A stretch of 64,000 nt of DNA from Phycisphaerales bacterium. GTDB taxonomy: Bacteria > Planctomycetota > Phycisphaerae > Phycisphaerales > UBA1924. Each line of letters begins with the position of its first letter. Positions within the stretch are counted from its first letter, which is position 1. The stretch is from contig JAJDDG010000005.1 in NCBI GenBank assembly GCA_029260435.1, positions 1 through 64,000 on the forward strand, in the 5' to 3' direction. Both the position numbers and the translations under genes were made by a program. Positions 668 through 51,428 of the stretch are shown here, one piece after another. The notes below the pieces were generated by a model that made no database searches, was not told where the DNA came from, and was given only the letters and a program-made list of their open reading frames with translations.

Positions 668-698
668 GTGCCACTGACCGGTCTGCCGGTCAGTGCTC
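668..698. repeat. REP-like palindrome, family 1 (GTGC-CACTGACCGG-loop-CCGGTCAGTG-CTC)
   Basis: Perfect 10-bp stem. Family members also at 1287..1319, 22501..22532, 29150..29185, 41143..41173 and 51152..51183 (rc). Confidence 0.8.
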
Positions 699-1180: not shown

Positions 1181-1437
1181 GCTACACGCAAACGCCAGTC
1201 CCGCCCCTTCTCCCCTTGGGGGAGAAGGTGATCGAACGACCCGTATGGAGAGTGAGATCGGATGAGGGGTCTTCCTCTTTCTCTCCGTGCCACCGATCCG
1301 CCGCGGCGGATCAGTGCTCTTCCGTCCTAACCCGACGGAGTACCTACCCTCCATCCGCAGGACGAATGTCCCTTCTTCCTCACAAAAATGCCACGCGCAC
1401 GCGTGGTAGATAAACAGACTTCTTGTAAAAGCGCGGG

Positions 1438-22397: not shown

Positions 22398-22532
22398 GGT
22401 GCCACGCCTTGGCCCGAAAGGCAAGGCGTGCTCTTATCAATTTTGGGGTGGCATGCTCACGCTTCAGCGCGAGCATGTCTTCTCTCCGTTCATCATCCCC
22501 GTGCCACTGACCCGTCCTCGGGTCAGTGCTCT
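22398..22532. repeat. composite REP-like element (family 2 hairpin GGTGCCACGCCTTGGCCCGAAAGGCAAGGCGTGCTC plus a family 1 hairpin)
   Basis: The same two-hairpin arrangement recurs at 41094..41173. Confidence 0.75.
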
Positions 22533-23053
22533 CCCTCTTCTTCCCTCTGTTCTATCGCCTCGCGCACCGCGATCTCTTGGCGCACATGTTTCTCCGGCAG
22601 CCAGATCGAGATGCCGCCCGCCTCGATGCGCACCCGCCCCAGCGCCGCATCCTCGATCGTCATCACTTCCCCCCACGGGATCGAAATTGCTGGCGTGCCA
22701 AACGCGAATAGCGGGTGCAGCGACAGGTGCAGAAATTCATCGTCCGCCCGACACACAATCGCGTTGTTGTACTTGAGCCACCACCAGCGCATCGAGAGCG
22801 ATGTCATTTTGTCCGACGGCGCACCACCTGCCGCCTTCGCTCCCGGGTACCGCTTCGCGAGCCGCCGCCACCCGGTGATGAGCGAAACAGGGAACATCAC
22901 GACCGGCGCGATCACGAACGGCACCACCGCGACCCCTGCGGTCGCAAGCAGCCCGACCATCGGGCTGACCCGCACTGTGACGATGGTCCCGATGACAATC
23001 GATTCGATCAGGATGATCGTGAAGATCAGGATTGATAGGGTGCGCTGTGTCAT
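22523..23053 (-). CDS. hypothetical membrane protein (two TM helices plus a soluble domain, bacterial PH-like)
   Basis: Hydrophobic N-terminus. Located immediately downstream of uvrA on the same strand. Confidence 0.45.
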   Translation of the reverse strand: MTQRTLSILIFTIILIESIVIGTIVTVRVSPMVGLLATAGVAVVPFVIAPVVMFPVSLITGWRRLAKRYPGAKAAGGAPSDKMTSLSMRWWWLKYNNAIVCRADDEFLHLSLHPLFAFGTPAISIPWGEVMTIEDAALGRVRIEAGGISIWLPEKHVRQEIAVREAIEQREEEGEH

Positions 23054-29149: not shown

Positions 29150-29258
29150 GTGCCACTGACCTCCCCGAAGGGAAGGTCAGTGCTCTTCTCCCTACATCTT
29201 CCGTGTGGCATATCCACGCTGCAGCGCCGGGTGCCACTGGCGGCTTGTCCGCCAGTGC
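29150..29258. repeat. adjacent family 1 and family 3 (GGGTGCCACTGGCGGCTTGTCCGCCAGTGCC) palindromes in the uvrB/permease divergent intergenic region
   Basis: Two perfect hairpins 45 nt apart. Family 3 is also the head of the 230-bp element. Confidence 0.8.
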
Positions 29259-36904: not shown

Positions 36905-37130
36905 GGGCAAGGCGCAGGGTGCCACTGGCGGCTTGCCCGCCAGTGTCCAGCCTACTCAAACAAACATGACGCTCAGTATCGCACGAATACAACGCGTTTC
37001 CACCGCCCGCCGCTTCTTCGTCAGAAAAATGCCATGCGTAGCATGGCTGGAAAATAAAATGTCTTCGGGGGGTGCGGGGGATTCTTCCCTCGCATCGCAT
37101 ACAACGAATACATTGCCGTTCTTGAAGTAT
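36905..37130 (+). repeat. ~230-bp structured repeat element, copy A
   Basis: GGGTGCCACTGGCGGCTTGCCCGCCAGTG hairpin, then a GCCATGC-gta-GCATGGC hairpin, then a GCGGGGGA-ttct-TCCCTCGC hairpin. About 80% identical to the copies at 45978, 49296(rc) and 49970(rc). Confidence 0.8.
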
Positions 37131-37144
37131 CCCGGAGCCTCGTC

Positions 37145-37822
37145 ATGCATTACCGCCGTGTAGTACCCCTTATTGCTCTCCTCCTCGCCGCCCTCATCCT
37201 CCCCGCCATGCGCCAGGATGTCACCCTCGACGAACTCGACCTCCGCACCATCAACAACAAAACCCACATCGCGCAGCTCGAACTCGAACTCGCAGCCCTC
37301 CGCGCCGAACTCAAAGACCTCCGCGAGAACTGCTGCGCCGATACTCCCCCCGTGCCGGAAGCTTCCAAAGTCCACAGCCCCGCTTCCATCCCGGCACACA
37401 ACAATGGCGTGTACTACTTCCGCCTCACGGCAATCACCGAGTTGGAAAAGATCGCTTCATTACTCGAACAGGCAGTCGCTCTGGAAGAGACCGCCCAAGA
37501 GTACCGAGAGCAGGCAACGAAGCGGCAAAGCTTAGGCGGTAAAAAACTAAGTCAAACCGAAATCCGACAACTCCATAGAGACGCGTCAGATTACGACGCA
37601 GATGCCAAAAAACTCCGCCGCGAATACAACAACCCCGGCTTCGCACTCGCCGGCTTCGATGCCGATGGCAGAGATGTCACCTGCAACGTCACCGGCCCGG
37701 ACATGCGCGCCGCCGCAAAGATCCCGCACAACAGCATCGTCATGGCACGCGGCGATGTCATCGAAAACACCGACGACAGACTCACACTAAACAGCGCCCG
37801 TGTCGGCCGAGTCCGAGAGTAG
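37145..37822 (+). CDS. secreted coiled-coil hypothetical protein
   Basis: Signal peptide VVPLIALLLAALILPA. AQLELELAALRAELKDLRE coiled coil. Confidence 0.45.
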   Translation: MHYRRVVPLIALLLAALILPAMRQDVTLDELDLRTINNKTHIAQLELELAALRAELKDLRENCCADTPPVPEASKVHSPASIPAHNNGVYYFRLTAITELEKIASLLEQAVALEETAQEYREQATKRQSLGGKKLSQTEIRQLHRDASDYDADAKKLRREYNNPGFALAGFDADGRDVTCNVTGPDMRAAAKIPHNSIVMARGDVIENTDDRLTLNSARVGRVRE

Positions 37823-38028
37823 ACCGATCCCCGATGCCTCTTCCCTCCCTCCCCCTCTGGGGGAGGTCGAAGATCCGCCGGAGGCGGGATGTCATCACTG
37901 TCTGCAGTGATGACAGGAGAGGGCTCCCCAATCTACTCCTTTTTCTTGCCCCCTCTCCCCACCGAAAGAGTATTGGGGTGGGGGGGCATCTTCCTGATGC
38001 CTATTGCCTAATGCCCGGTGCCTTCTTC

Positions 38029-40977
38029 TCACACCCCCACAGCCCCCGCGTCCCGATCGCTCAGCATCCCGCCATCGCTCCGCTCGCGCACCGTCCCGTC
38101 GCGCTTCCAACTCCGCTCGCACCGCGCCTCGCCCCGCAGATCCTGCACTTCAACATCCGCGCCGCCGAGCGTCACCCGCGAGACCCCCATCAGATCCGCG
38201 AGATCAACAGCGTCAAACACCGCGAGCACACCTTCCGGGTCAGGCATCGCAATCCCCGCATCGAGCGGGTTATCCAGTTCGCCCTTCGCGCGAACATCCT
38301 CCAGCGCCTTGAGCGCCGCGTCCCGCGCATCGATCGCTTTCGACCAGTTCTCGTTGCACGGCGCGCCGAAGCTGTCAACAAATGTCATCCGGTGGACGCA
38401 CACATCCTCGCCCTTCCGCAGCGCGCGCGCCGCCTCGTCCGCCGTATGCGGCAGCACCACCGCGAGCAACCGCGTGATCCCATCGGTCAGATCCCAAAGC
38501 GTGCTCTGTGTCAGCCGCCGCCGCGCCGAATCAATCCGGTCGCAGTACAGCCGGTCTTTCACCGCCGCGAGGTATACCGCGCTCAGCGTGTCGTTGCAGA
38601 AGTTATAGAGCAGCTCTGTCGCGCCGCGGAAGTTATACGCGCCGTACGCTTCCCGCACCGCGCTGTTCATCTTGTCAAACTCCCCAAGCACCCACGCATC
38701 AATACTCTCCGCCGGGTAATCCCGCATCGCAACGCACATCCCCTCGCCGCTCGTGCAATCTTTGCCGGGGGTTGGTGGGGGGGGTGAAGGTGTGAAATCA
38801 TCCAGATTGCTCAGCATGAACCGGATCGTGTTCCGCACCTTCCGGTACGCTTCCCCCGCCGTCCTGAAGAAATCGTGATCGCTCTTGATGTCCCCCTCAT
38901 ACGAGATCGTCGCGAGCCACCATCGGCACACATCCGCGCCAAACTCCTTCACCAGATCTTCAACATCGAGCGTGTTCCCCAGGCTTTTGCTCATCTTCTG
39001 CCCGTTCTTGTCCACCATGAATCCGTGCGTCAGCACCGTCTTAAACGGCGCGACCCCCGTCGCGCCCAACGCCGGCAGCAGCGAAAGCTGGAACCAACCC
39101 CGGTGCTGGTCAGACCCCTCTAAATACAGATCGATCGGGTAGTCCCTGCCCCCCGAGCGCTCCCGCATCACCGCGTTCCAGCTCGACCCGCTCTCGAACC
39201 AAACATCAAAGATGTCGTGCCCCGTGCGCATCGTCGCGCGATCAAACCCCTCCGGCGCATCGCCCCAGTCGTAGTGCTTGAGCAGATCCGCGGGCTCCAT
39301 CGTGAACCACGCATCCGAACCTTCTTCTCTAAATAGCTTCGCGATCGCGCGCACACTCGCCGCCGTCAGCAGCACCTTCCCCTCCCCGTCATAAAACGCC
39401 GGGATCGGTAGGCCCCAACTCCGCTGCCGCGAGATGCACCAGTCCGGGCGCGATTCCAGCATCCCCCGCATCCGGTTGCGACCCCAATCGGGTACAAACC
39501 GCACACCCTCCGCCGTTGCGCTCAGCGCCATCTCCCGCAGCGAGTCGCTCCGCCCCACCGCCTTGTCATCAACAGTGATAAACCACTGCTCCGTCGCGCG
39601 GAAGATTACCGGAGTCTTCCCGCGCCAGTCGTGCGGGTACGAGTGCATGAACTTGTGCGAATAAAACAGATGCCCGCTCGTGCGCAGATCTTCCGTCACC
39701 TTCTCGTTCGCGTCCCACACGCTCATCCCCGTATACTTCTCAGGAACAGTCCCGTCGTACGTCCCGTCCCCGTTCACCGGGCAATAGATAGGCAGCTTCT
39801 CGCGCACACCGGTGATGTAGTCATCGCTGCCGTGCCCCGGCGCGGTATGCACCAGCCCCGTCCCATCCTCAAGCGTCACATACTCCGCCGCGATCACCCG
39901 GTAGCACCGCCCTTCCTCCGCGTGCCGCACCGCGACCTTGGGCAGCTCCGCGAGCGCCGGCGCCGCGTCCCGCATCGGGTGCTTGTACCGCAGCTCAAGA
40001 AGAGCCTCGCCCTTCGCCTTCGCGATGATCTCCACCTCTTCCGCGCCCGCCTGCTTCGTCACCTTCTCCAGCAGCCCCTCCGCGAGCACCGTGTAGTTCC
40101 CGTCCACCCGCGCGAGCACATACTCAAACCGTGGGTGTACCGCGATCCCAAGGTTCGCCGCGAGCGTCCATGGCGTCGTCGTCCAGATCATGAAGCAGGG
40201 CGTCTGATCAGGACGCGCCTCGCCGGTTAACCCAAACGCGTCGTACACCGCCCCCGCGTCCGCCGCCTCGAAATCCACGTACACCGAGATATCCTCCCGG
40301 TCGTAGTACTCCAGCTCCGCGTCAGCAAGCGCCGTCTCGTTCGCGATCGACCAGTGCACACTCTTGAGCTGCCGGTACACCACCCCCCGTTCCACCAGCT
40401 CCGCGAACACCTCGACAACCGCGCCCTCGTACGAAGGCACCATCGTCAGATACGGATTGTCGTAGTCCGCGAGCGTCATCAGCCGCTCCATCTGCACCCG
40501 CTGCACCTTGATGAACTTCTCCGCGTACTTCTTGCACTCCCGCCGCACCGCCATCCGCCGCGCACCCTCCTCCAGCCCCTGCAATTTCGCGAGCTTCCCG
40601 CTCTCGCTCAATTCCTGCATCACCTTGTGCTCGATCGGCAAGCCATGACAATCCCAACCCGGCACGTACTCGCAGCTCATCCCCTCCATCACCTTGCTGC
40701 GCACAACGAAATCCTTCAGACACTTGTTCAGCATGTGCCCGAGGTGGATCGACCCGTTCGCATAAGGCGGCCCATCGTGGAACACAAACCGCCCCCCCGC
40801 GAAATCCGTACCCGCCCGCTCCTCTTTCAGCGCGTCGTACAACTTCCCCTTCGACCACCGCTTGAGCGACGCCGGCTCGTTCTGCACCAGGTTCGCCTTC
40901 ATCGGGAACGAAGTCTTGGGCAGATTGAGAGTCTTCTTGTAGGAAGGCTTCTTGTTTTCAGCAGCGCTCTGGCTCAT
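38029..40977 (-). CDS. ileS: isoleucine--tRNA ligase
   Basis: HMGH-type motif (PYANGSIHLGHMLN), KMSKS motif and editing domain; 982 aa. Confidence 0.95.
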   Translation of the reverse strand: MSQSAAENKKPSYKKTLNLPKTSFPMKANLVQNEPASLKRWSKGKLYDALKEERAGTDFAGGRFVFHDGPPYANGSIHLGHMLNKCLKDFVVRSKVMEGMSCEYVPGWDCHGLPIEHKVMQELSESGKLAKLQGLEEGARRMAVRRECKKYAEKFIKVQRVQMERLMTLADYDNPYLTMVPSYEGAVVEVFAELVERGVVYRQLKSVHWSIANETALADAELEYYDREDISVYVDFEAADAGAVYDAFGLTGEARPDQTPCFMIWTTTPWTLAANLGIAVHPRFEYVLARVDGNYTVLAEGLLEKVTKQAGAEEVEIIAKAKGEALLELRYKHPMRDAAPALAELPKVAVRHAEEGRCYRVIAAEYVTLEDGTGLVHTAPGHGSDDYITGVREKLPIYCPVNGDGTYDGTVPEKYTGMSVWDANEKVTEDLRTSGHLFYSHKFMHSYPHDWRGKTPVIFRATEQWFITVDDKAVGRSDSLREMALSATAEGVRFVPDWGRNRMRGMLESRPDWCISRQRSWGLPIPAFYDGEGKVLLTAASVRAIAKLFREEGSDAWFTMEPADLLKHYDWGDAPEGFDRATMRTGHDIFDVWFESGSSWNAVMRERSGGRDYPIDLYLEGSDQHRGWFQLSLLPALGATGVAPFKTVLTHGFMVDKNGQKMSKSLGNTLDVEDLVKEFGADVCRWWLATISYEGDIKSDHDFFRTAGEAYRKVRNTIRFMLSNLDDFTPSPPPPTPGKDCTSGEGMCVAMRDYPAESIDAWVLGEFDKMNSAVREAYGAYNFRGATELLYNFCNDTLSAVYLAAVKDRLYCDRIDSARRRLTQSTLWDLTDGITRLLAVVLPHTADEAARALRKGEDVCVHRMTFVDSFGAPCNENWSKAIDARDAALKALEDVRAKGELDNPLDAGIAMPDPEGVLAVFDAVDLADLMGVSRVTLGGADVEVQDLRGEARCERSWKRDGTVRERSDGGMLSDRDAGAVGV

Positions 40978-41093
40978 CGCTCTAGCTCACAGATCTTGTG
41001 GTGTGTTCATGTCTGGGGTCGTGAATGAAGGGAGTTGTGGGTATCAGGGGGAGGCGGAACAGCATACCTCCACCTCTCATTCCTTCCTCCTCA

Positions 41094-41173
41094 GGTGCCA
41101 CGACCTTGGCCCGGAGGGCAAGGCGTGCTTCTCATCTCTTTCGTGCCACTGACCTGTCTTCAGGTCAGTGCTT
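41094..41173. repeat. composite REP-like element (family 2 plus family 1 hairpins)
   Basis: GGTGCCACGACCTTGGCCCGGAGGGCAAGGCGTGCTT then GTGCCACTGACCTGTCTTCAGGTCAGTGCTT. Confidence 0.75.
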
Positions 41174-41236
41174 TTGGTCTCTCCTCTTCCTGATGCCTGA
41201 TCCCCGGTGCCTGGTGCCTTCTTCTTCTTCTTCCAT

Positions 41237-41266
41237 AAAAAAACGCGGCCCCGGGGGAGCCGCGTC
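41237..41266 (-). terminator. rho-independent terminator after the 41299..41844 gene
   Basis: On the minus strand: GCGGCUCCC/GGGGCCGC stem followed by UUUUUUU. Confidence 0.6.
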
Positions 41267-41298
41267 ATCAACTGTTCAGATGATCAAGCCGCCGGGGA

Positions 41299-41844
41299 TT
41301 ACTCCGCGATGTGCTCGAAAATAGACTGCGACCGCAACACCAGCCCGCCCTGGGCCAGCAGGTGGTAGCTCTGGGCATGAACTTCACGCCGAAAACGCTG
41401 GATATCAAGGATCGATGCGCACCGCCCATCCTCGTCCTCCCACTCGTGGATCAGCGCATCGTTGTCCCGCCCAAACTCCAGAAGCTCGTCGTACGTGTCC
41501 CCGTACAGGGTCTCGGGAAGCTGCTCCGTCTGAACGGTGCAGACATATTTGATCTTCTCGCCGAACGCCTGCTCGTGATCACGCTCGCCCGCGCACGGCA
41601 CCGCAGCCACGATCCCGCGATCCGGGATCCCGTCTTCCTGAGCCGAGACCAGTTCCGTGGCGCACAGCCCGTCGTACTGCAGACGCATCAGGTGCATCCC
41701 GGGCATCACCCATGCTTCAAACTCGTAATCGGCGTGCTGGATCCAACGACGATCTTTCACCTGAAACAGCTCGGGATGAAGGGCTCGTCGGTACAAGATA
41801 AGACGGTAAGCCTGGAGGCTGGTTGACTTGACTGGGGCGCTCAT
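41299..41844 (-). CDS. hypothetical protein (DUF2617-like, acidic)
   Basis: 181-aa ORF with good codon usage and a terminator immediately downstream. Confidence 0.5.
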   Translation of the reverse strand: MSAPVKSTSLQAYRLILYRRALHPELFQVKDRRWIQHADYEFEAWVMPGMHLMRLQYDGLCATELVSAQEDGIPDRGIVAAVPCAGERDHEQAFGEKIKYVCTVQTEQLPETLYGDTYDELLEFGRDNDALIHEWEDEDGRCASILDIQRFRREVHAQSYHLLAQGGLVLRSQSIFEHIAE

Positions 41845-41984
41845 GAATCGTCCTTAATACGGTTCGCAGTGGAGGAGAAACGACCTATTCCGTGTCGTCG
41901 CGGGTGGTCAGTGTAGGCAGCGAATCACCGCTTTCAAGAGAGAACCTGTGAACTCACGTACGGTTTCGTGAACTTCTTAGTTCA

Positions 41985-43994
41985 ATGAAAAAGAGGCAGA
42001 TTTTGCGCCCGGGCGAGTGGGCGACCACAACCACTAGTGTAATACACAACATCTGGAGGTCCAGCTTTTATCGGCCCGATTCGTTCTATCCAGTGTGGAC
42101 CCGTAAACCAACAAATCTCCAGAAACGTTTGGCATATGTACGGTCTTTGCCACGCACACAGCGCGATGCCGTCCTCACCGCCGCCCTCAATCATGCCCAT
42201 CCCGACGAGCGCGATGCCATCGCCCTCGAAGCCCTCGCCGCATCTGCCCACCCGCTCAGCAAGTCCCTCGTCGGCACCGTCCTCGCCCACTGGGATGTCC
42301 TCTCCCTCACCGTCCGCCGCCGAGCCCTCGAATCCGTCTCGGGCTCACTCCCCGATGTCTTTCGCCGTCTCAGGTTGTCCCAGGACCCCGCCGAACGCCG
42401 CGCCGCCGTTGTCCTCGCCGTCGCCTGTCTCGCCGATGCCCTCCAGCGCGACGCTGACCGCGAAGCACCCCTCCCGCCAGCCTTGGACGAAGCCGCACTC
42501 CGCGACCCCGAACTCGCCGCCGAGCTCGACGCCGTTCTCGCCGAAGCCGCCCGCCGTCTCGATGACCACCCCACCCGCCGCGAGCGAGACGCCGCGCCGG
42601 ACCCCGTCCTCTCGATCATCGTCCGCGTCGCGCACGCGCCGGGTCCCAACCTCCGAAAGTGGCTCAACACTCCAACCGAAGGGCACATGCCCCTCCGCGC
42701 AATCGCCAAAGCACTCCCCCGCGCTGAGCAGCTCGACCGCGCCGTCGCATGGCTCGCCGTCAAAGCGCTCCGCCCCGTCGCGATCGCAGCCCTCGAAACC
42801 GACCCCGCCGACGGCGCCCGCCGACTCGCCCGCAGCGCGCACCTGCTTACTGCCAACGCGCGCACCAAAGCGCTCCGCCGCCTCCGCGACCCCGCAATGA
42901 TGCTCCCCGCCAACGCTGCGCTGGATGCAATGCCAACCACCGAGCGCCTCGGCGCGATCCGCCTCCTCGGGCTGCTGGATATCAAACCCGAGCACCGCCT
43001 CGCGTACTGCGCCCGCCGCCTCACCGACCCCGCTCCCGAGGTCCGCCTTGCAGCGCTCGCCGCGCTCGCCGCCCAGCGCCCCTCCCCAGAGCTGGACAGC
43101 GCCCTGCTGGATTTCGCGTTCGATGAACACCCCCGCGTCGCGGCCCGCGCCGCAGGGTGCCTCGCCGGTGCAAACTCCTACAACCGCCGCGTTACGCTCA
43201 TCCCCGCGTTCGAAAACCTCGCCCGCTCGCCCCACAGCGCCGTCCGCACCATCGCCGCAGCCGCGCTCCGCGCCACCGACCCGCGGGCCGACCTCGATGC
43301 AACAGACCGCTTCGCCTGCCCCGTCGCCGCACGGCGCGCCCTCAAGCTCGACCCCGACGGGCTCACCCAGCAAATTGGCGATCGCACAACAAGCGAAGAG
43401 CCCGGACAGCGCAGCAGAGCCTTCCTGCTCGCAGACCGCCTCGCGCTGCTCGAGCACGTCGAAGCCGCACTCATCGACGCAGTGAAAAACGCCAACACCG
43501 CGCTCGCCGCGACCGCCGTCCGCCTGCTCGCCAAGCTCCCCGGCCCGGGTCCAGCGAGCGTCCTCCGTCTCGCGCTCGCGCACAAAGACGCCCGCGTCCG
43601 CGCAAACGCTGTCGAGGGGATCGCCATCAACCAACCCGCCGACCCGAAACTCGAAGTGCTCATCGCAGACCCAATCCCCCGCATCCGCGGCAACGCCCTG
43701 CGCCATGTCCTGCGCCGCGCACCGAAGAACCCACCCGCGTGCGCCGAACTCTCCCGCATGCTCGAAGACGCCCGCGCGCCGCACCGACTCACCGCACTCT
43801 GGGTCGCCGAACGCCTCGGGCACACACCCTCCGCCCGCCGAGTCGCCGAGATCGCCGCCAGCGATCCAGACGCCGCCGTCCACCGCCGTGCCGTGCGCTG
43901 CGCCCGCCGACTGCTCGCCGAGATGCGCAGCGCCAAACCAACCGCCTCGATCGTCACCCAAGCCGCCGACGCCGCTCCCTCCCGCTGCGCCTAG
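41985..43994 (+). CDS. HEAT/PBS-lyase repeat protein
   Basis: Repeated (D/E)xxVRxxAxxAL units throughout (EVRLAALAALAA, DARVRANAVEGIA, IPRIRGNALRHVL). Start uncertain. Confidence 0.65.
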   Translation: MKKRQILRPGEWATTTTSVIHNIWRSSFYRPDSFYPVWTRKPTNLQKRLAYVRSLPRTQRDAVLTAALNHAHPDERDAIALEALAASAHPLSKSLVGTVLAHWDVLSLTVRRRALESVSGSLPDVFRRLRLSQDPAERRAAVVLAVACLADALQRDADREAPLPPALDEAALRDPELAAELDAVLAEAARRLDDHPTRRERDAAPDPVLSIIVRVAHAPGPNLRKWLNTPTEGHMPLRAIAKALPRAEQLDRAVAWLAVKALRPVAIAALETDPADGARRLARSAHLLTANARTKALRRLRDPAMMLPANAALDAMPTTERLGAIRLLGLLDIKPEHRLAYCARRLTDPAPEVRLAALAALAAQRPSPELDSALLDFAFDEHPRVAARAAGCLAGANSYNRRVTLIPAFENLARSPHSAVRTIAAAALRATDPRADLDATDRFACPVAARRALKLDPDGLTQQIGDRTTSEEPGQRSRAFLLADRLALLEHVEAALIDAVKNANTALAATAVRLLAKLPGPGPASVLRLALAHKDARVRANAVEGIAINQPADPKLEVLIADPIPRIRGNALRHVLRRAPKNPPACAELSRMLEDARAPHRLTALWVAERLGHTPSARRVAEIAASDPDAAVHRRAVRCARRLLAEMRSAKPTASIVTQAADAAPSRCA

Positions 43995-44002
43995 GAATCC
44001 AC

Positions 44003-44512
44003 ATGCAGATCCTCTCGATCACAACAAACATCCTCTCGCCACTGCTCGCCGTGGACACCGTCTGGCTCGAAGCCGCGCCCATCGAAGAGACAGCATCAGC
44101 CGTTCACGGGAGCGGAGGGATGGTAGATGGAGTGGGGGGGTGGGGAGTGTTGATCGCCGCGCTCTTCGTGCTGCTCGCCTGCCTCCTCGCTACCCGCTAC
44201 CTGATCCACCGTTCGCGCACCACCGATCTCCAGGCAGCCTTCTCCCGCCTCGCCAGGCGCATGATGCTGCCCCGTCGCGCCCGAAAATCAATCCTCGCCC
44301 TGAGCGAATCCTCGGGCATCCCCGCCGCCGCCATGCTCATCTCCCGAGGCGCATTCACCGCCGCCCTCGCAACCGCCGATACAGACCAGACCAAAGAACC
44401 CCGCGCACGCGCACCGCGCATCATGCTGGGGCTCTTCGCAGAACTCACCCCGCCGCCCCGATCCGGGGGAGCGTGGGGCACCCTCATCAACCGCTTCTCA
44501 ACCCGCACCTGA
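44003..44512 (+). CDS. hypothetical membrane protein
   Basis: ATG 44003, 9 nt after the HEAT gene stop. One TM helix (GVLIAALFVLLACLLA) and a basic C-terminal region. Confidence 0.45.
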   Translation: MQILSITTNILSPLLAVDTVWLEAAPIEETASAVHGSGGMVDGVGGWGVLIAALFVLLACLLATRYLIHRSRTTDLQAAFSRLARRMMLPRRARKSILALSESSGIPAAAMLISRGAFTAALATADTDQTKEPRARAPRIMLGLFAELTPPPRSGGAWGTLINRFSTRT

Positions 44513-44520
44513 GCCAACAC

Positions 44521-44991
44521 ATGCAAGACCCATCCGAAAGACGCGAGCACCGCCGACTGCCCTACAACCGCGAGGTCAAGTTCGCCTGGCTCCACGACGG
44601 CTGCATCGCGTGGCCCGCCCGCCGCATCATCGCCGAAGACATCTCCAAGGGCGGCATCCGCCTGCGAGGCGAGATCATCCCCGAGGGCGCAACCTCCGCG
44701 GTCATCGAACTCAAACGCGCCGACGGCACCCGCGCCGTCATGGGTGTCAATGTCGTCTACACCAAGAACATGATCCACACCGCCGCGCAACTCGAACGCG
44801 AAATGGACGCCGCGAGCAGTGGGGGGGGTGGGAGCAGTGGGAGTGCCGGTGGAGGTGTTGGTGTGGGGGGTGGTCTGGGTGGGGGGGTTGCAGGCGCACG
44901 CTTCTTTGCGCTCTCGGACGAACTCATCGAACGCGAACTCACAGACGCACAAGGCAGAGTCACAGGGCTCGACGCCTACGTCGCCGCGTGA
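44521..44991 (+). CDS. PilZ-domain c-di-GMP receptor with a Gly/Ser-rich linker
   Basis: RREHRRLPY (RxxxR) and EDISKGGIRL (DxSxGG) motifs. Confidence 0.7.
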   Translation: MQDPSERREHRRLPYNREVKFAWLHDGCIAWPARRIIAEDISKGGIRLRGEIIPEGATSAVIELKRADGTRAVMGVNVVYTKNMIHTAAQLEREMDAASSGGGGSSGSAGGGVGVGGGLGGGVAGARFFALSDELIERELTDAQGRVTGLDAYVAA

Positions 44992-45095
44992 TAAGCATAT
45001 CTGAGCGCCTTTGTTTTTCCTTTATAGTCCGCCGCCCAACCGTGGTACTCTGATCGCACGAGGCGAAGCCCATGCCGGGTTGTAAGGAGATAAGC

Positions 45096-45950
45096 ATGAA
45101 GTTGAGTATGATCATCGCTACAGGCCTGATGATGTGTTCTTCGTTCGCTCATGCGCAGCCCTGCGCAAACTATGACGCCTCGCTGGGTACATTCCCCGAG
45201 GATCAGGGTTGGGCATACGAAACAACCGGCGATACAGTCGTTATCACTACCGAGATCCGCGGAGACGCCCTGTACCAGAACTCGATGCCCGGGCATACCT
45301 GCCCCCCATCCGCAACGAATGCCCGGATCGCCGCCTGGCAAATATCCGGCGATTCATTCGAGTTCATTGACGGCATTGTCTTTGCAACAGAATTGAAAAT
45401 CATTGAGTCAGAAATCAATCAAAACTGCTCGCTCGGCTACGCTCGGGCTGGTGTGGCTTTCACCGCGATCGACGTGAACGGGAATGTATTCTGGATCGGT
45501 TTCGGCGAGGAAACAGTCCTACTCTCGAACTCGACCATCGCTCCAGTTGGCCCGGCCGTGAAAGAGATCGACTTCACGACGACCGACGGTTTCCATGTGT
45601 ACCGAGTTGAAGTGTCCGGATCGAGCGCGCTGTTATTCATCGACAACGTACTCTTAGGCGCAATCAACGGATTAGGAAATACAGTGGGAAGCACGAACCG
45701 TGTCTGGATCGGTGACGGTACAGTCTTCGCCAACAGCGAGTTCGAGATCCGCTCCTTCCATGTTGTTGGTCCGAACTGCTGCACGGCCGATGTGAATGGA
45801 GATAGCGTTATAGATGTCAACGACATCACATACGTGCTGTTCCGCCTCGGAAGCACGTGCCCCCCTTGCGACGGCGACGCCAACGAAGACGGCGCGGTCG
45901 ATGTCAACGATCTGACCTTTGTGCTCTTCCGCCTCGGTGATCCGTGTTGA
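45096..45950 (+). CDS. secreted protein with C-terminal dockerin-like repeats
   Basis: AAGGAG RBS and a signal peptide. Two DVNGDSVIDVNDITYVLFRLG / DANEDGAVDVNDLTFVLFRLG repeats. Local GC is markedly lower than in the flanks. Confidence 0.6.
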   Translation: MKLSMIIATGLMMCSSFAHAQPCANYDASLGTFPEDQGWAYETTGDTVVITTEIRGDALYQNSMPGHTCPPSATNARIAAWQISGDSFEFIDGIVFATELKIIESEINQNCSLGYARAGVAFTAIDVNGNVFWIGFGEETVLLSNSTIAPVGPAVKEIDFTTTDGFHVYRVEVSGSSALLFIDNVLLGAINGLGNTVGSTNRVWIGDGTVFANSEFEIRSFHVVGPNCCTADVNGDSVIDVNDITYVLFRLGSTCPPCDGDANEDGAVDVNDLTFVLFRLGDPC

Positions 45951-45977
45951 ACATATCTGTAAACTCAAACCGTGTTC

Positions 45978-46200
45978 ACCATCGCCGGGTGCCACTGGCG
46001 GCTTGTCCGCCAGTGTCCGCCCTGCTCAAGAAAACGTAACGCGCACCGTCACTCGAACACAACGCATCCCCGCCGCACGCCCCTTCTTCCTTTGAAAAAA
46101 GCCATGCGAAGCATGGCATAAAGACAATCTCTCTTGAGGGGGTGCGGGGGATCCCTCCCCCGCATCGCGCATGTCTCGTCCGCCGCAGCACGCACGCCGT
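45978..46200 (+). repeat. ~230-bp structured repeat element, copy B
   Basis: Same three hairpins as copy A, in the same order and orientation. Confidence 0.8.
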
Positions 46201-46220
46201 GTTCTGATTAGCCTGTCTCT

Positions 46221-46784
46221 ATGCCGCCGTCTTCTCCCAAACTCATTTTCCTCATCGGGCTCCGCGGCTCGGGCAAGACCACCCTCGGGCGCATGCTCGC
46301 CGAGCACCTCGGCGCATCGTTCGACGATCTCGACGACCTCGTCCGTGCGCACTTCGGTGTCGATACGATCCGCGAGATCTGGGAGACCGCCGGCGAGCGC
46401 GCATTCCGCGAGCAGGAAGCCGTGTGCATCAAGGACACCATCGCGGCGCACACTACCGCCGGACAGGAATCGATCCCGAGGGTCATCGCGCTCGGCGGCG
46501 GTTCGCCGACCGCCCCCGGAGCAAATAACACTCTCGTAGAGGCGCAGAACGCCGCCGTTTGCGACGTCATCTACCTCGATGCGCCCCCAGCGACGCTCGC
46601 CGCGCGCATCAACGCGTGCGATCCGGACCGACCGAGCCTCACGGGTACCGATCCTGTGCGCGAAGTCACCGCGGTGCATACGCAGAGACACAGCATGTAT
46701 GCGCAGCTCGCGCGCCACTCCGTGGACGCATCGGGCACCCTTGATGCTGTCCTGGCGCGCATCATTAGTGCACTCGAATCATAA
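46221..46784 (+). CDS. aroK: shikimate kinase
   Basis: LIGLRGSGKTTLGRMLAE P-loop plus a DxD shikimate-binding region. Confidence 0.85.
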   Translation: MPPSSPKLIFLIGLRGSGKTTLGRMLAEHLGASFDDLDDLVRAHFGVDTIREIWETAGERAFREQEAVCIKDTIAAHTTAGQESIPRVIALGGGSPTAPGANNTLVEAQNAAVCDVIYLDAPPATLAARINACDPDRPSLTGTDPVREVTAVHTQRHSMYAQLARHSVDASGTLDAVLARIISALES

Positions 46785-46835
46785 TTTTTCAGAGATGAAA
46801 AACGATGGATGGGGTGGTGGTGGAGGAGCGGGGGG

Positions 46836-47228
46836 TTAGGCGGCGAGCGAGTAGCGACCGCTCTCAAGGCGTTCCATGAGCCGCTGCTGATCGCCCGGCA
46901 TCACAAACCGCTTGAACACACACGCCATCCGCACAGGCCCGTTGTCCTCGACATCGTCCTCGTTGATCCACACAACATTCGCGAACGCGTACACCGGGCG
47001 GCGCTGGGAAAACCGCAGCGACTCCTGCCCCGGTAGTGTCAATCGGATCGCGACACTCGTGCCCGGCTCGATCGGGTAATCGAGTTCGAACCGCATCCCG
47101 CCCTCGGAAACGTCGTACGCGTGACCGGACCACTGGAATGTGTCGTTGTCGAGCGGGCGGATATCCACACGCGTGTACATCGAGGGGAGCGTGTAACGCT
47201 GGTGCTGGCGGCGGTTGTTCCCGTACAT
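46836..47228 (-). CDS. PilZ-domain c-di-GMP receptor
   Basis: RRQHQRY and DVSEGGMRFE motifs. The start could also be 47249. Confidence 0.7.
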   Translation of the reverse strand: MYGNNRRQHQRYTLPSMYTRVDIRPLDNDTFQWSGHAYDVSEGGMRFELDYPIEPGTSVAIRLTLPGQESLRFSQRRPVYAFANVVWINEDDVEDNGPVRMACVFKRFVMPGDQQRLMERLESGRYSLAA

Positions 47229-47353
47229 GACTGGCCTCCCTTGGCGCAATTCGGCCCTTGGCTGATAGCGCTATCGGTCGGCGGCGGGGCGGGGTTGAGC
47301 GGGTTGTGTGGTTGCGCCCGGTCGTGGCGCGGGGGAGCCCCGTATGTGGGGGG

Positions 47354-47815
47354 CTACGTTCGGGCGGCGATCAATTCGAGACTGACGCGGTCGATCGGCA
47401 GCCCGAGTTCGGCCTCGATCTGCTGCACCAGTTCGCTCGGGAACGACGCGAGGAGTTTTTTACCCAGGTGATGCGGCACATCGATGATCGAGCCGTCGGG
47501 CGATGTGATGTGCAGATGATCCGAGGTGTCGGCGTCGTAGCGGGTGGGGCCGCTCGCGGTGGGGATGCACCGGATGATGCCGGCTTTGCAGAAGGTTTCG
47601 AGTGTGTTGTAGACGGTGGCGAGCGAGGAGCACGAGCAGTTGCACCCGAGCATGTCGCGCAGTTGCTCTGCGGTGGGGTGGGTGTCCGTTTTCGCGAGGG
47701 CGCGGTAGAGCTCGAGGCGCTGCTTGGTGCAGCGCAGCCCGGCTTCGGCGAATAAAGATCTGATCTGTTGATCGCAATCGACCATCAGTTGGGTCACCTC
47801 GTTTCGATGGAGCAT
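47354..47815 (-). CDS. fur: Fur-family transcriptional regulator
   Basis: LRCTKQRLELYRAL...HPTAEQL...SLATVYNTLETF winged-helix region. HHxxxxC-type metal-site residues. Confidence 0.8.
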   Translation of the reverse strand: MLHRNEVTQLMVDCDQQIRSLFAEAGLRCTKQRLELYRALAKTDTHPTAEQLRDMLGCNCSCSSLATVYNTLETFCKAGIIRCIPTASGPTRYDADTSDHLHITSPDGSIIDVPHHLGKKLLASFPSELVQQIEAELGLPIDRVSLELIAART

Positions 47816-47879
47816 TCTTACAGGGCAATCGGCGCAAGGCGAGCCGATTACTTCGATTCGTTGAGATTGCGAATGAGTC

Positions 47880-48389
47880 TCAAGAAGAAGACGACGCTTC
47901 GGCGGCTTCCGGGGTTCTATGGTCTGACGGCGGCTCGAAGACCATTTTGTAGTGTGGGATCCCGGCTTCCTGGTATTCGTCTTCCATTTTGGACCACCCC
48001 ATGGACTCATAAAATTCGATGGCGCCAACGCGGGCGCTGCACCAGAGGGATTTCAGGGCGAGTTCGCCGAATGCCCGGCGTTCGAGTTCGGCGACGAGTC
48101 GGCGGGCGATGCCCTCGCGCTGGCGCTGGGGATCAACGACCATCTGCATCAGCTTGGCGGTGCCCTTGGTTGGGTAGTCCGGTAACAGGCAGACGCACCC
48201 GATGACCCGCTCACCCGAGGGGTGGTTGACGACGGCGACGATGTGTTCGCAGGCGGCTTCGGAGCCTGGGAAGAGCTTGTCGAGGTCGTCCATGTCGATG
48301 CCGATGGGCTTGAGCAGCACCCGGACGCGCAGCGCAACCTCTTGTGTATAAAGAGGATGCTGCTGATCGATGCGGATGACACGGATCAT
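47880..48389 (-). CDS. GNAT-family N-acetyltransferase
   Basis: QRQREGIARRLVAELERRAFGEL acetyl-CoA-binding motif A. Confidence 0.8.
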   Translation of the reverse strand: MIRVIRIDQQHPLYTQEVALRVRVLLKPIGIDMDDLDKLFPGSEAACEHIVAVVNHPSGERVIGCVCLLPDYPTKGTAKLMQMVVDPQRQREGIARRLVAELERRAFGELALKSLWCSARVGAIEFYESMGWSKMEDEYQEAGIPHYKMVFEPPSDHRTPEAAEASSSS

Positions 48390-48479
48390 GTAGAAGCTCG
48401 CTGCGTATGGCCCGGTGGGACGGTGTATTCAAGGATAGTATCCACTTACCGGGGCGGCGTTCAATCATCGATCCCGGTG

Positions 48480-49295
48480 ATGGGTAAAACTCGTGGAGTT
48501 GGTGGGTGCGACGGGGTTTGGAGACGGCGCGTGGCGAAGCGGCGGGTAGAAGAAGATCGGCGGCTGCTGTGTGAGGGGTGCGGGTACGACCTGACGGGGC
48601 TTGCGGGTGAAGGCGATGGTGGGAGGGCTTGCCCGGAGTGCGGGAGGGGGATCAACGAGTCGAAGCCCGTGCATCGGACGGGGACGGCGTGGCAGCGAAT
48701 CGGCGGGGTGCGCGGGTGGTGGGGATCGCTGGTGGAGTTGGTGCGTGGGAATCAGCAGATGTGGGAAGAGGCGCGGGTGGGATGGCGGACCGACCGGCAT
48801 TTGGCGCTATTCAATGCCGTCGCTGCGGGTGGGCTCGTCGTAGCGGGACTTGTCACCAACGGCATCTTTGGAACCAGTTTCCGAGAGGTAGCCGAGGTAA
48901 CCGTCGTTGTGCTGATTCTCTTCTGGTGGGTGCTCGTTCATCTGATAACGACATCGCTCGTGCTGATAATGATCTGGATTGAGCATGTCGGCATTCGATT
49001 CTTCGGGAAACGACGGGGATGGCGAATTAGCGAGGGGGTTGCGTGGACGGTTGTGGGTCACGCGAGCTATGGGTGGCTGGTGAGCGGGGTTTTGTGCGGC
49101 GTGCTGATGCTCGAGCCGGTTCGGATGAATATGCCGTGGCGAGATATGGAGTTGCCGTTTTTAGCAGGGCATATCGATGGATACCTCATCACGCTGATTG
49201 GCGCGGCGCTGTGGGGGATGATTGTGTTTGAGATTTGTGTGTATCTGGGTGTGCGGAAGATGCGGTATGCGAACCCTCCAACAATCACGCAGTGA
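48480..49295 (+). CDS. zinc-ribbon (CEGC-x18-CPECG) multi-pass membrane protein
   Basis: ATG 48480. N-terminal Cys motif, then ~5 TM helices. The 3' third is duplicated at 49589..49969. Confidence 0.55.
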   Translation: MGKTRGVGGCDGVWRRRVAKRRVEEDRRLLCEGCGYDLTGLAGEGDGGRACPECGRGINESKPVHRTGTAWQRIGGVRGWWGSLVELVRGNQQMWEEARVGWRTDRHLALFNAVAAGGLVVAGLVTNGIFGTSFREVAEVTVVVLILFWWVLVHLITTSLVLIMIWIEHVGIRFFGKRRGWRISEGVAWTVVGHASYGWLVSGVLCGVLMLEPVRMNMPWRDMELPFLAGHIDGYLITLIGAALWGMIVFEICVYLGVRKMRYANPPTITQ

Positions 49296-49585
49296 CACGC
49301 TTCTCGATTCACGATGCGGGGGAAGTGTCCCCCGTTTACCCCCCCTTTATGTTTCGCAATGCGGGGGAAGAATCCCCCGCACCCCCTCAGGAAGAAGAAG
49401 GCATCGGGGATCAGGTGCCGAGCATCAGGAAGAAGCTATTTTTCAGCCACGCTTCGCGTGGCTTTTTTCTGAGGAAGAAGGAGCGGGCGGCGGGGAAGCA
49501 TTTAGTTCGTGTAATGGTGTGTGTTCCGTTTGTTTGAACAGGGCGGGCACTGGCGGACAAGCCGCAGTGGCACCCGGCGTTTCCA
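49296..49585 (-). repeat. ~230-bp structured repeat element, copy C (inverted orientation, internally expanded)
   Basis: The reverse complement aligns with copies A and B. The middle hairpin carries compensatory changes (GCCACGC/GCGTGGC), and the terminal hairpin is partly duplicated. Confidence 0.8.
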
Positions 49586-49588
49586 CGT

Positions 49589-49969
49589 TTGGATCGATGG
49601 CTGTTGCTTGGGTTATTAATCGTGCTGGCCGTTGGTGGTATTACTTTGCTACTGACTGGTGTTGAGCAGAAAGGGATTCGGTTCTTTGGGAACCGGCGCG
49701 GGTGGCGGATTTCGGAGGGTGTGGGATGGACGGTTGTTGGGCACGCGAGCTACGGGTGGCTGGTGAGTGGGGTGCTGATGCTCGAGCCGGTTCGGATGAA
49801 TATGCCGTGGCGAGATATGGAGGTGCCGTTTTTAATGTCGGATATCGATGGGTACCTCATCACGCTGATTGGCGCGGCGCTGTGGGGGATGATTGTGTTT
49901 GAGATTTGTGTGTATCTGGGAGTGCGGAAGATGCGGTATGCGAATCCGCCGGGAGTTGTTTCTTCTTGA
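49589..49969 (+). pseudogene. partial paralog (3' membrane module) of the 48480..49295 gene, with no ATG (TTG/GTG only)
   Basis: The last ~95 aa are ~90% identical to the C-terminus of 48480..49295. The nucleotides are near-identical from GCTGGTGAG onward. Confidence 0.5.
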
Positions 49970-50175
49970 AATGCGATGCGGGGGGCAAGCCCCCCGCATC
50001 CCCCGAAGAGATGCTGTTTATCTGCCACGCTCCCCCACACACAGGCGTGGGGCATTTTTCTGAGGAAGAAGGAGCGGGCACAGGGTATGTGTTGTGTTCA
50101 TGTGATGGACGCGTCACGATTGTTTGAGCAGGCCGGACACTGGCGGACAAGCCGCCAGTGGCACCCGGCGTTGAA
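49970..50175 (-). repeat. ~230-bp structured repeat element, copy D (inverted orientation)
   Basis: The reverse complement aligns with copies A-C. The GGTGCCACTGGCGGCTTGTCCGCCAGTG head is intact. Confidence 0.8.
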
Positions 50176-50299
50176 AGTGAACCAGTATCCGGAATGCCTA
50201 GTTCAATGCGATTTTAAATAAATTGATCCCTAGGACAAACAGGATGAATCCAATGCCCAGACTGATGAGCGATATGAACACCCAGCCGAGGACAATGCC

Positions 50300-50560
50300 C
50301 TATGCAATCGTGAGAACTGGTTGTTCATCAAACTTGCTGCTGGTGTACATCTGAAACGGTCTGGATTCAATCTCGGTGCGTGCCTTTATTCCTGGCACGG
50401 TGATGGGTTGTCCACATCTCAAGCACCTTATGGCTTCGCCTGCCAGATTGATCGAATCCTCATTCTCAAGCCGACAATTTGGACACGAATGCTTAATTGT
50501 AATACGACCGGTCGTGCGGCATCGCTTTAACTGATACGGAATTGGCTTCTGATCTGTCAT
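50300..50560 (-). CDS. small zinc-ribbon protein (CPNC-x15-CLRCG) in a low-GC patch
   Basis: 86 aa from CAT 50558-50560 with GGAG upstream; two CxxC pairs; GC ~47% versus ~66% in the flanks. Confidence 0.45.
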   Translation of the reverse strand: MTDQKPIPYQLKRCRTTGRITIKHSCPNCRLENEDSINLAGEAIRCLRCGQPITVPGIKARTEIESRPFQMYTSSKFDEQPVLTIA

Positions 50561-51085: not shown

Positions 51086-51428
51086 GGAGGTTGGGGAGGG
51101 TCTGTTTTCAGTGATGCTGCGCGTCACTTTTATGTAAGGAAGTAAAGATGAAGAGCACTGACCCGAGGACGGGTCAGTGGCACGGGGAGAAGAGCGTCGA
51201 TTGGCACGGAGGGCAAGCGGTGGCACTCAGCGTGTTGGATCGTGGTTTACGCCTACGGCGTATACCACGGCACCCGGCTGGAGATGGTGGTGGATGATGA
51301 ATAGAAGTGTTCAAAGCATGTGAAGACCCCCTCACCCGGTCTCATCCCGGCGCGCCGGGATTCGACCACCCTCTCCCTGGAAAGGGAGAGGGGGCAGGAC
51401 AGGATTCGGCGGGGTAGAGTAGTCGGCG

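Follow-up and report, generated by a model that had tools for sequence, protein, structure and literature searches.

The stretch of DNA analysed here, referred to as the window, covers 64,000 nt of a Phycisphaerales bacterium (assembly GCA_029260435.1, contig JAJDDG010000005.1, positions 1 to 64,000). It contains four copies, A to D, of an intergenic element with three hairpins. We consider it probable that this element is a composite, non-coding intergenic repeat of the type formed by repetitive extragenic palindromes (REPs) and bacterial interspersed mosaic elements (BIMEs), in which a REP head is joined to a lineage-specific body that bears terminators. REP hairpins are single-stranded DNA hairpins recognised by REP-associated tyrosine transposases (RAYTs), which are HUH-Y1 enzymes. 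The element is a known kind, REP/BIME and RAYT-associated, in a new arrangement, and not a new RNA gene. In this genome the unit has been copied en bloc three times or more, and it is an insertion relative to close relatives. Furthermore, its modules recombine, its hairpins keep pairing by compensatory change, and its orientation is fixed relative to the replication-associated strand asymmetry, not to genes.

The homology of the four copies, and the shared order of their hairpins, had been proposed in an earlier prediction made from this sequence, and both were confirmed by reading and alignment, with a pairwise identity of 78-87% (Table 1). Each copy runs from a conserved 5' GGGTGCC to a conserved 3' CCCCGCATCGC(AT). 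In between, the 5' head hairpin is followed by a linker of ~85 nt, a pyrimidine tract with an A-run, the middle hairpin, a linker of ~25 nt, and a G-rich terminal hairpin with the conserved end CGCATCGC(AT). The unit measures ~185-195 nt, and not the ~230 bp first estimated. Copy C, with 268 nt, owes its extra length to an internal insertion of ~45 nt between direct repeats CTTCTTCCTGA and to a second, degenerate terminal hairpin. The head pattern gave four matches at up to 3 mismatches, against none expected in shuffles, and the head of copy C, which carries a 1-nt deletion, was recovered with a gapped pattern. The left flank of the copies is consistently CGCC or CGCA. As had been noted, no consistent open reading frame (ORF) survives in the element; small ORFs can be seen by eye on the opposite strand, with starts and frames that are not conserved.

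Table 1. Positions of the element copies, their parts, and the other REP-type hairpins in the window
Feature	Position	Strand	Parts and remarks
Copy A	36917-37100	+	head REP 36917-36945; middle hairpin 37031-37047; terminal hairpin 37073-37094
Copy B	45987-46172	+	head 45987-46015; weak hairpin 46036-46052; middle hairpin 46101-46117; terminal hairpin 46143-46164
Copy C	49308-49575	-	head 49548-49575 (1-nt deletion); middle hairpin 49446-49462; terminal hairpin 49360-49381
Copy C, extra parts		-	inserted CTGATGC module ~49391-49436; second terminal hairpin 49315-49335
Copy D	49971-50166	-	head 50138-50166; weak hairpin 50101-50118; expanded middle hairpin 50024-50052; terminal hairpin 49977-49998
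Terminator call, middle hairpin of A	37047-37031	-	
Terminator call, middle hairpin of B	46117-46101	-	
Terminator call, middle hairpin of C	49445-49463	+	
Terminator call, middle hairpin of D	50033-50052	+	
Partial arrangement E	1287-1417	+	REP variant GTGCCACCGATCCGCC..GGCGGATCAGTG 1287-1316; ~50-nt spacer; middle module 1370-1417
Solo head	29229-29257	+	exact 29-mer, no body; in divergent promoter region; preceded by S2-type REP hairpin 29151-29182
S2-type REP hairpin	669-695	+	CGTGC-CACTGACCGG..CCGGTCAGTG with CTCTTC pyrimidine tail
Same-orientation tandem	22400-22528	+	S3-type REP hairpin 22400-22430; S2-type REP hairpin 22502-22528
Block	41096-41245	+	S3-type REP hairpin 41096-41127; S2-type REP hairpin 41144-41170; CTGATGCC module 41185-41225
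REP hairpin and following hairpin	51103-51183	-	S2-type REP hairpin 51156-51183, then hairpin 51110-51128

The head consists of the foot GGGTGC, the stem CACTGGCGG/CCGCCAGTG and the loop CTTGY. It represents one subfamily of a broader motif, (G/C)GTGC-CAC...GTG, of which 13 REP-type hairpins of 24-29 nt lie within the 64 kb, all of them intergenic, with a shared foot and three stem subfamilies, several in same-orientation tandems. The list of copies in the original prediction was incomplete, as it missed a solo head, the middle module of the partial arrangement E and the eight further GTGC-CAC-footed hairpins. The partial copy was recovered with an nhmmer profile of the four bodies (E 8e-8) and contains the pyrimidine tract, the A-run, the middle hairpin and the linker, without the terminal hairpin. 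Logan contigs of the same genome are short and begin or break exactly at heads, which indicates that the heads are multi-copy.

Hairpins of closely similar design have been described for the strain coded PbraA01, which, from the accessions, we take to be Planctomyces brasiliensis. Table S1 of Quentin et al. 2018 (PMC6006769) gives GTGC-CACTGGC-TCC-GCCAGTG beside subclass 2.2 TnpA-REP (RAYT) genes of this strain, and GGTGC-CACTGCTGG-CTTGT/CTTGC-CCAGCAGTG beside the same RAYT genes (ADY58178.1 and ADY58460.1). These GGTGC hairpins match the head in foot, outer stem and loop. The exact head sequence was not found in the searched literature.

A scan of one genome per species for the 28-mer GGTGCCACTGGCGGCTTGYCCGCCAGTG gave at least 119 loci with an exact match, spread over at least 47 Phycisphaerae and Planctomycetia assemblies. 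The head REP is identical to the base in these two Planctomycetota classes. Among the matches listed, to which the counts in this and the next paragraph refer, 23 labels are Phycisphaerae-type, 13 Planctomycetia-type (including the isolate Maioricimonas sp. JC845), 7 read 'Planctomycetota', and 4 are other or give no phylum. The exact 28-mer also occurs on many contigs of two metagenome-assembled genomes (MAGs) labelled Anaerolineales (CAYVAM and CAYGZE; loci L004, L028, L030, L040, L041 and others), and on one contig of a MAG labelled Fimbriimonadaceae (L091, CAYONP). These are either mislabelled bins, or the sequence has spread outside Planctomycetota. The head was not found on viral contigs, and clustering of the ORFs near heads yielded no recurrent neighbour gene.

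An inverted downstream partner accompanies 58 of the 115 heads that have enough flank, at a median spacer of ~21 nt; an upstream partner was present in only 5 heads. In the doublets the GGGTGCC feet point outward, which is the architecture of REPINs (REP doublets forming hairpins). Stem pairs were counted in 51 partners, which the search pattern did not fix. Their stems are 94% Watson-Crick and covary at position 8 (G-C 25, A-T 13, T-A 10), position 4 (T-A 41, G-C 7) and position 7 (C-G 44, T-A 4), as well as at position 6. Wobble pairs are rare and strand-symmetric (4 vs 8), as fits a DNA hairpin and not a strand-specific RNA. For the head, the proposed 'recognised DNA cruciform' was therefore the closest of the earlier suggestions, considering its REP type, the pairing of its stems, its symmetric wobbles and an orientation that follows the GC skew.

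This orientation pattern is strict within the window. The nine REP-type hairpins between 669 and 45990 are all on the + strand and the four between 49548 and 51183 all on the - strand. GC skew is unusually strong, at about -0.2 to -0.27 over 14-46 kb and +0.3 to +0.4 over 48-64 kb, and passes zero at ~46.5-47 kb, a switch of origin-type polarity (negative to positive). All 13 hairpins follow the switch, and their foot strand is always C-rich. Within the negative arm, the stretch from 4 to 14 kb has a weak positive skew. Logan contig L120 spans 45990-49130 and with it the switch region, so the flip in orientation is not a misassembly. No intergenic cluster of DnaA boxes was found at the switch, and therefore we do not claim an origin there. 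Neighbouring genes run in the direction of the REP in four spacers, and against it in another four. In other genomes, among the matches listed, the foot strand has a negative local skew in 50 of 62 unpaired heads (p 1.2e-6), and where |skew| exceeds 0.05 it is C-rich in 24 of 26. Y1 enzymes act on single-stranded DNA at replication forks (PMC6006769), which makes a replication-coupled origin the natural reading of the pattern. The bias relative to skew points to a DNA-level, replication-linked mechanism.

Insertion-like behaviour of the element is evident from three relatives, L136, L137 and L138, which we located via flanking proteins; L137, L138 and the window group as ((L137, L138), window). 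Copy A is absent from L137, where the spacer from plsC to the next gene measures 31 nt, against 247 nt in the window, and the empty site shows no target duplication. L137 also lacks the ~165-nt REP/module block at 41080-41245, yet keeps the terminator of the adjacent gene, and it lacks the 207-nt block 37822-38029, where the genes of both L137 and L138 abut or overlap. Around copy B, aroK and its upstream gene are 31 nt apart in L136 and 1.24 kb apart in the window; the dockerin-repeat gene (45072-45950) and copy B are both missing from the syntenic L136 site. The dockerin gene is thus either a lineage-specific gain or a loss in L136. Together with copy B this gene looks cassette-like, and an integron attC site was considered; it was rejected because the ends do not pair and core sites are absent.

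In L138, the copy-A site has a 167-nt spacer without a head, with a homolog of the 3' half of the element (E 2e-5 to 4e-5 in 0.9 Mb), in which terminal hairpin, linker and terminator are kept. This 3' half may be an ancestral feature that L137 has lost; otherwise, related modules must have entered this spacer on two occasions. No REP-type hairpins were found in ~17 kb from the relatives. The body is lineage-specific: blastn and nhmmer did not find it in the 119 reference-genome loci listed, nor in later loci except L138, and it was not found on viral contigs. A scan of JGI metagenomes with a head/body junction pattern gave 14 matches, all by chance, with no head before and no body after the junction.

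The relation of the copies to genes is less regular. The element had been described as recurring after stop codons. This fits plsC and the dockerin gene, as the head starts 19 nt past the stop in copy A and 36 nt past it in copy B. It fits neither the zinc-ribbon gene, with a distance of 133 nt to the head, nor copies C and D, in which the tail abuts the stop: 12 nt past that of the + strand gene ending at 49295 in C, and 1 nt past that of the + strand gene 49589-49969 in D, which sits between convergent genes. Copies C and D lie in a ~680-bp tandem duplication, made up of the 3' part of the zinc-ribbon/membrane-protein gene and the element. In this duplication (48222-49295 / 49589-49969), the C-terminal membrane domain of the zinc-ribbon protein was copied together with the element; the duplicated gene part is 93% identical over 187 nt, yet the attached elements only 85%. 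Sharing one tandem duplication, C and D go back to one ancestral insertion, and their change from T-A to C-G in the middle hairpin is a single event.

The body measures ~155 nt. Opposite the REP foot strand it has two Rho-independent terminators, one of them strong and the other weak, as well as a G-rich stem-loop. In each of the four copies the terminator scan called the middle hairpin, on the opposite strand to the head, as a stem of 6-8 bp with T5-6 directly after it. These calls rank just under the terminator of the DUF2617 gene, whose hairpin is also present in L137. B and D carry a weaker hairpin with a T-rich tail in their first half, again on this strand, and another such hairpin lies beside the REP at 51156. 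Read as RNA, the middle hairpin is meaningful only on the opposite strand, as an intrinsic terminator. Since the tails of C and D abut the stops of + strand genes, the body gives each of these genes its only recognisable terminator. The promoter scan called no sigma-70-like site in any copy. A candidate TTGAAA..CATAAA, present in copy B only, is neither conserved nor called by the scan and was discarded. Rfam 15, a comparison recommended with the prediction, gave no match at the gathering score in the whole window, and chance-level matches only at permissive thresholds over 45900-50300. Copy B folds better than shuffles on both strands, with z of -3.8 for the forward and -5.0 for the opposite strand.

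Base pairs of the body hairpins change in a compensatory manner. In the middle stem, position 2 is C-G in A to E and T-A in L138, and position 5, where the earlier reading of a compensatory change proved right, is T-A in A and B and C-G in C, D, E and L138. In the terminal stem, position 5 is G-C in B, C and D, G.T in A and A-T in L138, and position 9 is A-T in A, B and C and G-C in D. With the exception of the outermost pairs, internal pairs are unbroken everywhere except in the degenerate second terminal hairpin of C. Pairing in these hairpins is evidently maintained, and the dispersed, non-coding family with hairpins kept by compensatory change is what had been predicted; the four-copy sample is too small for significance. 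Among the four copies, 98% of the cells are paired and 2 pairs show double changes, a score that is reached by 20 of 500 shuffles and is thus suggestive, not significant. The double change in the middle hairpin, presented as covariation, consists of true compensatory substitutions and reduces to a single event by the duplication of C and D. Likewise, the G-U pair reported for copy A exists as a G.T pair in the terminal hairpin, and is not evidence for RNA on that strand.

If the element is a REP-headed composite, the head would be the handle for a RAYT-type, single-strand DNA reaction linked to the replication fork, by which the unit may be dispersed. Alternatively, dispersal could occur by recombination between REPs. 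The role of the body at the RNA level would be limited to that of a portable cassette with a terminator or 3'-end hairpin, which in A, B and E could stop only antisense or divergent transcription. A more specific proposal is that we see a cargo-carrying REP, a non-autonomous single-strand DNA element whose one REP hairpin suffices for a RAYT-type enzyme to copy the attached 155-nt terminator cassette to further intergenic sites in a replication-strand-specific way. The REP/RAYT system, the same to the base in two Planctomycetota classes yet missing from sister lineages, would then spread horizontally and not only vertically. We put this forward tentatively, and regard it as unlikely.

Neither the window nor the surroundings of 131 sampled heads yielded a RAYT in a search by HUH/Y motif regular expressions and RayT-domain tblastn. 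The gene between two heads in locus L029, in an interval of 700 nt, is of the nucleotidyltransferase type and not a RAYT. At L101 398-4504 (CAMTWL010000001.1, a Phycisphaerae MAG), a RayT-like Y1_Tnp domain (PF01797, E 1.8e-5) was observed at 1916-2362, in frame inside a valyl-tRNA-synthetase-like ORF of 1369 aa, between poly-Ser and Pro/Gly-rich stretches. This may reflect the insertion of a domain, or of a gene in frame. We used the domain as a query for homologs. The closest stand-alone homolog, P0241 of Phycisphaerales MAGs (L139-L142), has a GTGG-CACAGGCG-TCT-CGCCTGTG hairpin at the 5' end of the gene and an inverted doublet directly after its stop, and another homolog is flanked by canonical GTAG REPs. 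RayT-like genes flanked by REPs in Phycisphaerales MAGs indicate that the REPtron organisation exists in this clade. The GTGG-CACAGGCG-TCT-CGCCTGTG design is also present in L005, L021, L052, L058 and L069, and the GTGG-CACAGGCG REP co-occurs with the head-type REP in a Planctomycetaceae MAG (CAZTAR).

Several points weigh against a REP-headed composite moved by a RAYT. We know of no RAYT reaction that moves a REP together with 155 nt of cargo, and the terminal hairpin is unlike the head, which leaves the movement of the block unexplained. The RAYT search around this REP was negative, as described above, and the RayT-like genes found carry the related GTGG-CACAGGCG REP or GTAG REPs, none this exact one. 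The foot GGTGC/CGTGC (GTGC) differs from the canonical unpaired tetranucleotide GT[AG]G, and inverted doublets are absent among the 13 hairpins of the window, which are single or in same-orientation tandem. Gene orientation is a partial confounder of the local GC skew in the 8-kb loci. With its foot strand on the leading-strand template, the REP has a polarity opposite to that expected by simple analogy with IS608, if this strand is the active one. The terminators of A, B and E point away from both neighbouring genes. Finally, with only six body-containing sequences, selection on structure is inseparable from quasi-palindrome correction by template switching, which could mimic it.

In a different explanation, the strand opposite the head carries a small RNA gene, present in several copies, and the REP is just its neighbour. 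The transcript, of ~75-100 nt, would comprise a G-rich 5' stem-loop, a U-rich linker (..AAGA..CTGTTTATC..) and a terminator hairpin with U-run. A canonical terminator on the opposite strand in all copies fits this picture, as do the retention, at the copy-A site of L138, of precisely the terminal hairpin, the linker and the terminator, the linker and terminator kept in partial copy E, the compensatory changes in both hairpins, and the stronger fold of that strand. However, a promoter would find no space within the conserved unit ahead of the terminal hairpin, and none was called; in C and D the opposite strand is simply the 3' untranslated region (UTR) of the upstream gene; linker conservation is modest; and the orientation follows GC skew as that of REPs does. 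Together with the lack of an Rfam match and the absence from the sister lineage L137, this makes a small RNA gene improbable. A forward-strand cis-regulatory RNA, either a leader or a 3'-UTR element acting on the flanking genes, is far less likely still. Copies A, B and E and the L138 homolog each lie just upstream of a co-oriented gene, the forward strand folds better than shuffles, and one G.T pair is found on it, but A, B and E precede genes that are not related to each other (for a secreted protein, aroK and a pentapeptide protein), and C and D point the other way and abut stop codons. The orthologous genes in L136 and L137 do without the element, with 31-nt spacers, and Rfam again gave no match. 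The single structured RNA that had been proposed as a candidate is not upheld either, as Rfam returned nothing, the orientation to flanking genes is inconsistent and the parts occur separately.

The block could also be a non-autonomous element of the IS200/IS605 type, similar to the palindrome-associated transposable elements (PATEs), in which head and terminal hairpin are end hairpins cut by a TnpA/RAYT-type Y1 enzyme. The entire 185-nt block would then be a true single-strand transposon. Hairpins a few nucleotides from both ends, sharp conserved boundaries, the missing inverted terminal repeats and target duplications, the uniform left flank, the strand-specific orientation to GC skew and the clean presence/absence difference of copy A all agree with this explanation. 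Yet the hairpins at the two ends show no relation in sequence: the head has the stem CACTGGCGG and the loop CTTGT, the tail the stem TGCGGGGGA and the loop TYCY. The parts are also independent, given the solo heads, the head-less 3' half in L138 and the duplicated terminal hairpin in C. No parent insertion sequence (IS) or tnpA/tnpB was seen, and the skew polarity is opposite to IS608 if the foot strand is active. We therefore doubt it strongly. The least likely explanation is a classical miniature inverted-repeat transposable element (MITE), a deletion derivative of an IS with a DDE transposase, which had been the second candidate in the original prediction. A small, non-coding element in several dispersed copies with insertion polymorphism resembles a MITE, but none of the four copies has terminal inverted repeats, the ends GGGTGCCACTGG... 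and ...CCCCGCATCGCAT not being complementary, none is flanked by direct repeats as target-site duplications, and the modules assort independently.

Among known systems, REPs, REPINs and their RAYTs (E. coli REPs, Pseudomonas fluorescens REPINs (PMC3116915), subclass 2.2 REPtrons (PMC6006769)) resemble the element in several respects: the palindrome is short and extragenic, its 5' foot is conserved and unpaired, a genome holds many copies and several subfamilies, and the stems covary. In other Planctomycetota, about half of the cases listed are inverted doublets with outward feet, like REPINs, and the design of foot, stem and loop is that found beside planctomycete RAYT genes in the subclass 2.2 REPtrons (PMC6006769). 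Unlike in these systems, the foot is G(G/C)TGC and not GT[AG]G, the exact 28-mer is common to at least 47 assemblies of two classes where REP families are usually lineage-specific, REPs in the window are single or in same-orientation tandem, five of them fused to the 155-nt body, and a cognate RAYT was not observed in the window or at the sampled heads. Like the BIMEs of enterobacteria, which have been linked to roles as terminators or mRNA stabilisers (PMC3116915, PMC3733652), the blocks combine REPs with other conserved short motifs into extragenic mosaics. In BIMEs, however, REPs alternate in orientation with short defined linkers, whereas here neighbouring REPs share their orientation and one REP is joined to a long body with hairpins of its own.

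IS200/IS605 elements and PATEs likewise have no inverted terminal repeats or target duplications and carry subterminal hairpins. The ends of IS200/IS605 elements resemble each other, in contrast to the dissimilar end hairpins seen here, where tnpA/tnpB are also missing and the skew polarity is unlike that of IS608 if the foot strand is active. Single-strand biology coupled to the replication fork predicts a strand-specific orientation (PMC6006769), and such a bias is seen for the REPs in the window and for the unpaired heads of other genomes. Like the element, Correia and ERIC (enterobacterial repetitive intergenic consensus) repeats are dispersed intergenic repeats that carry terminators; theirs have terminal inverted repeats, in Correia also target duplications, and the present element has neither and is headed by a REP. 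The Correia elements of Neisseria and the enterobacterial ERIC are intergenic repeats of 100-200 nt that supply hairpins or terminators to neighbouring transcripts.

Parts of the element are also found on their own or combined in other ways, which makes it a mosaic. Next to an S2-type REP, the hairpin 51110-51128 is similar to the one in the first half of the body and has a terminator-like form on the + strand. A separate module of ~40 nt, TCTTCCTGATGCC..GGTGCCTTCTTCT, is found at 37989-38029, 41185-41225 and, as the insertion inside copy C, at 49391-49436 (-). Another small family of hairpins, CCCTCTCCC-n5/6-GGGAGAGGG, in one case followed by CCGGGGTGAGGG, occurs at 727-761 and 51369-51392; similar hairpins lie at ~1205-1228 and 37850-37866, and a similar motif follows a head in L112. 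The convergent intergenic block of 207 nt at 37822-38029 is full of hairpins, for example GATGTCATCACTGTCTGCAGTGATGACAG. In one case a coding sequence is involved: the 3' arm of the S2-type REP hairpin 22502-22528 contains the stop codon of the - strand ORF 22523-23053, so that insertion of the REP may have altered the 3' end of this gene.

Most work on REP/RAYT systems concerns Proteobacteria, in which the doublet is regarded as the unit that moves and each family as specific to a lineage and inherited vertically. The REP described here has a design conserved to the base in at least 47 assemblies, and the coupling of single-REP orientation to GC skew is strong and has not been remarked on in the literature searched. 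If it is true that a RAYT moves the block, REPs can carry functional cargo, which Bertels and Rainey raised only as a speculation (PMC3116915). The repeats explain assembly breaks in such genomes. Furthermore, the orientation of REPs may help to mark replichore boundaries in a phylum with poorly mapped origins.

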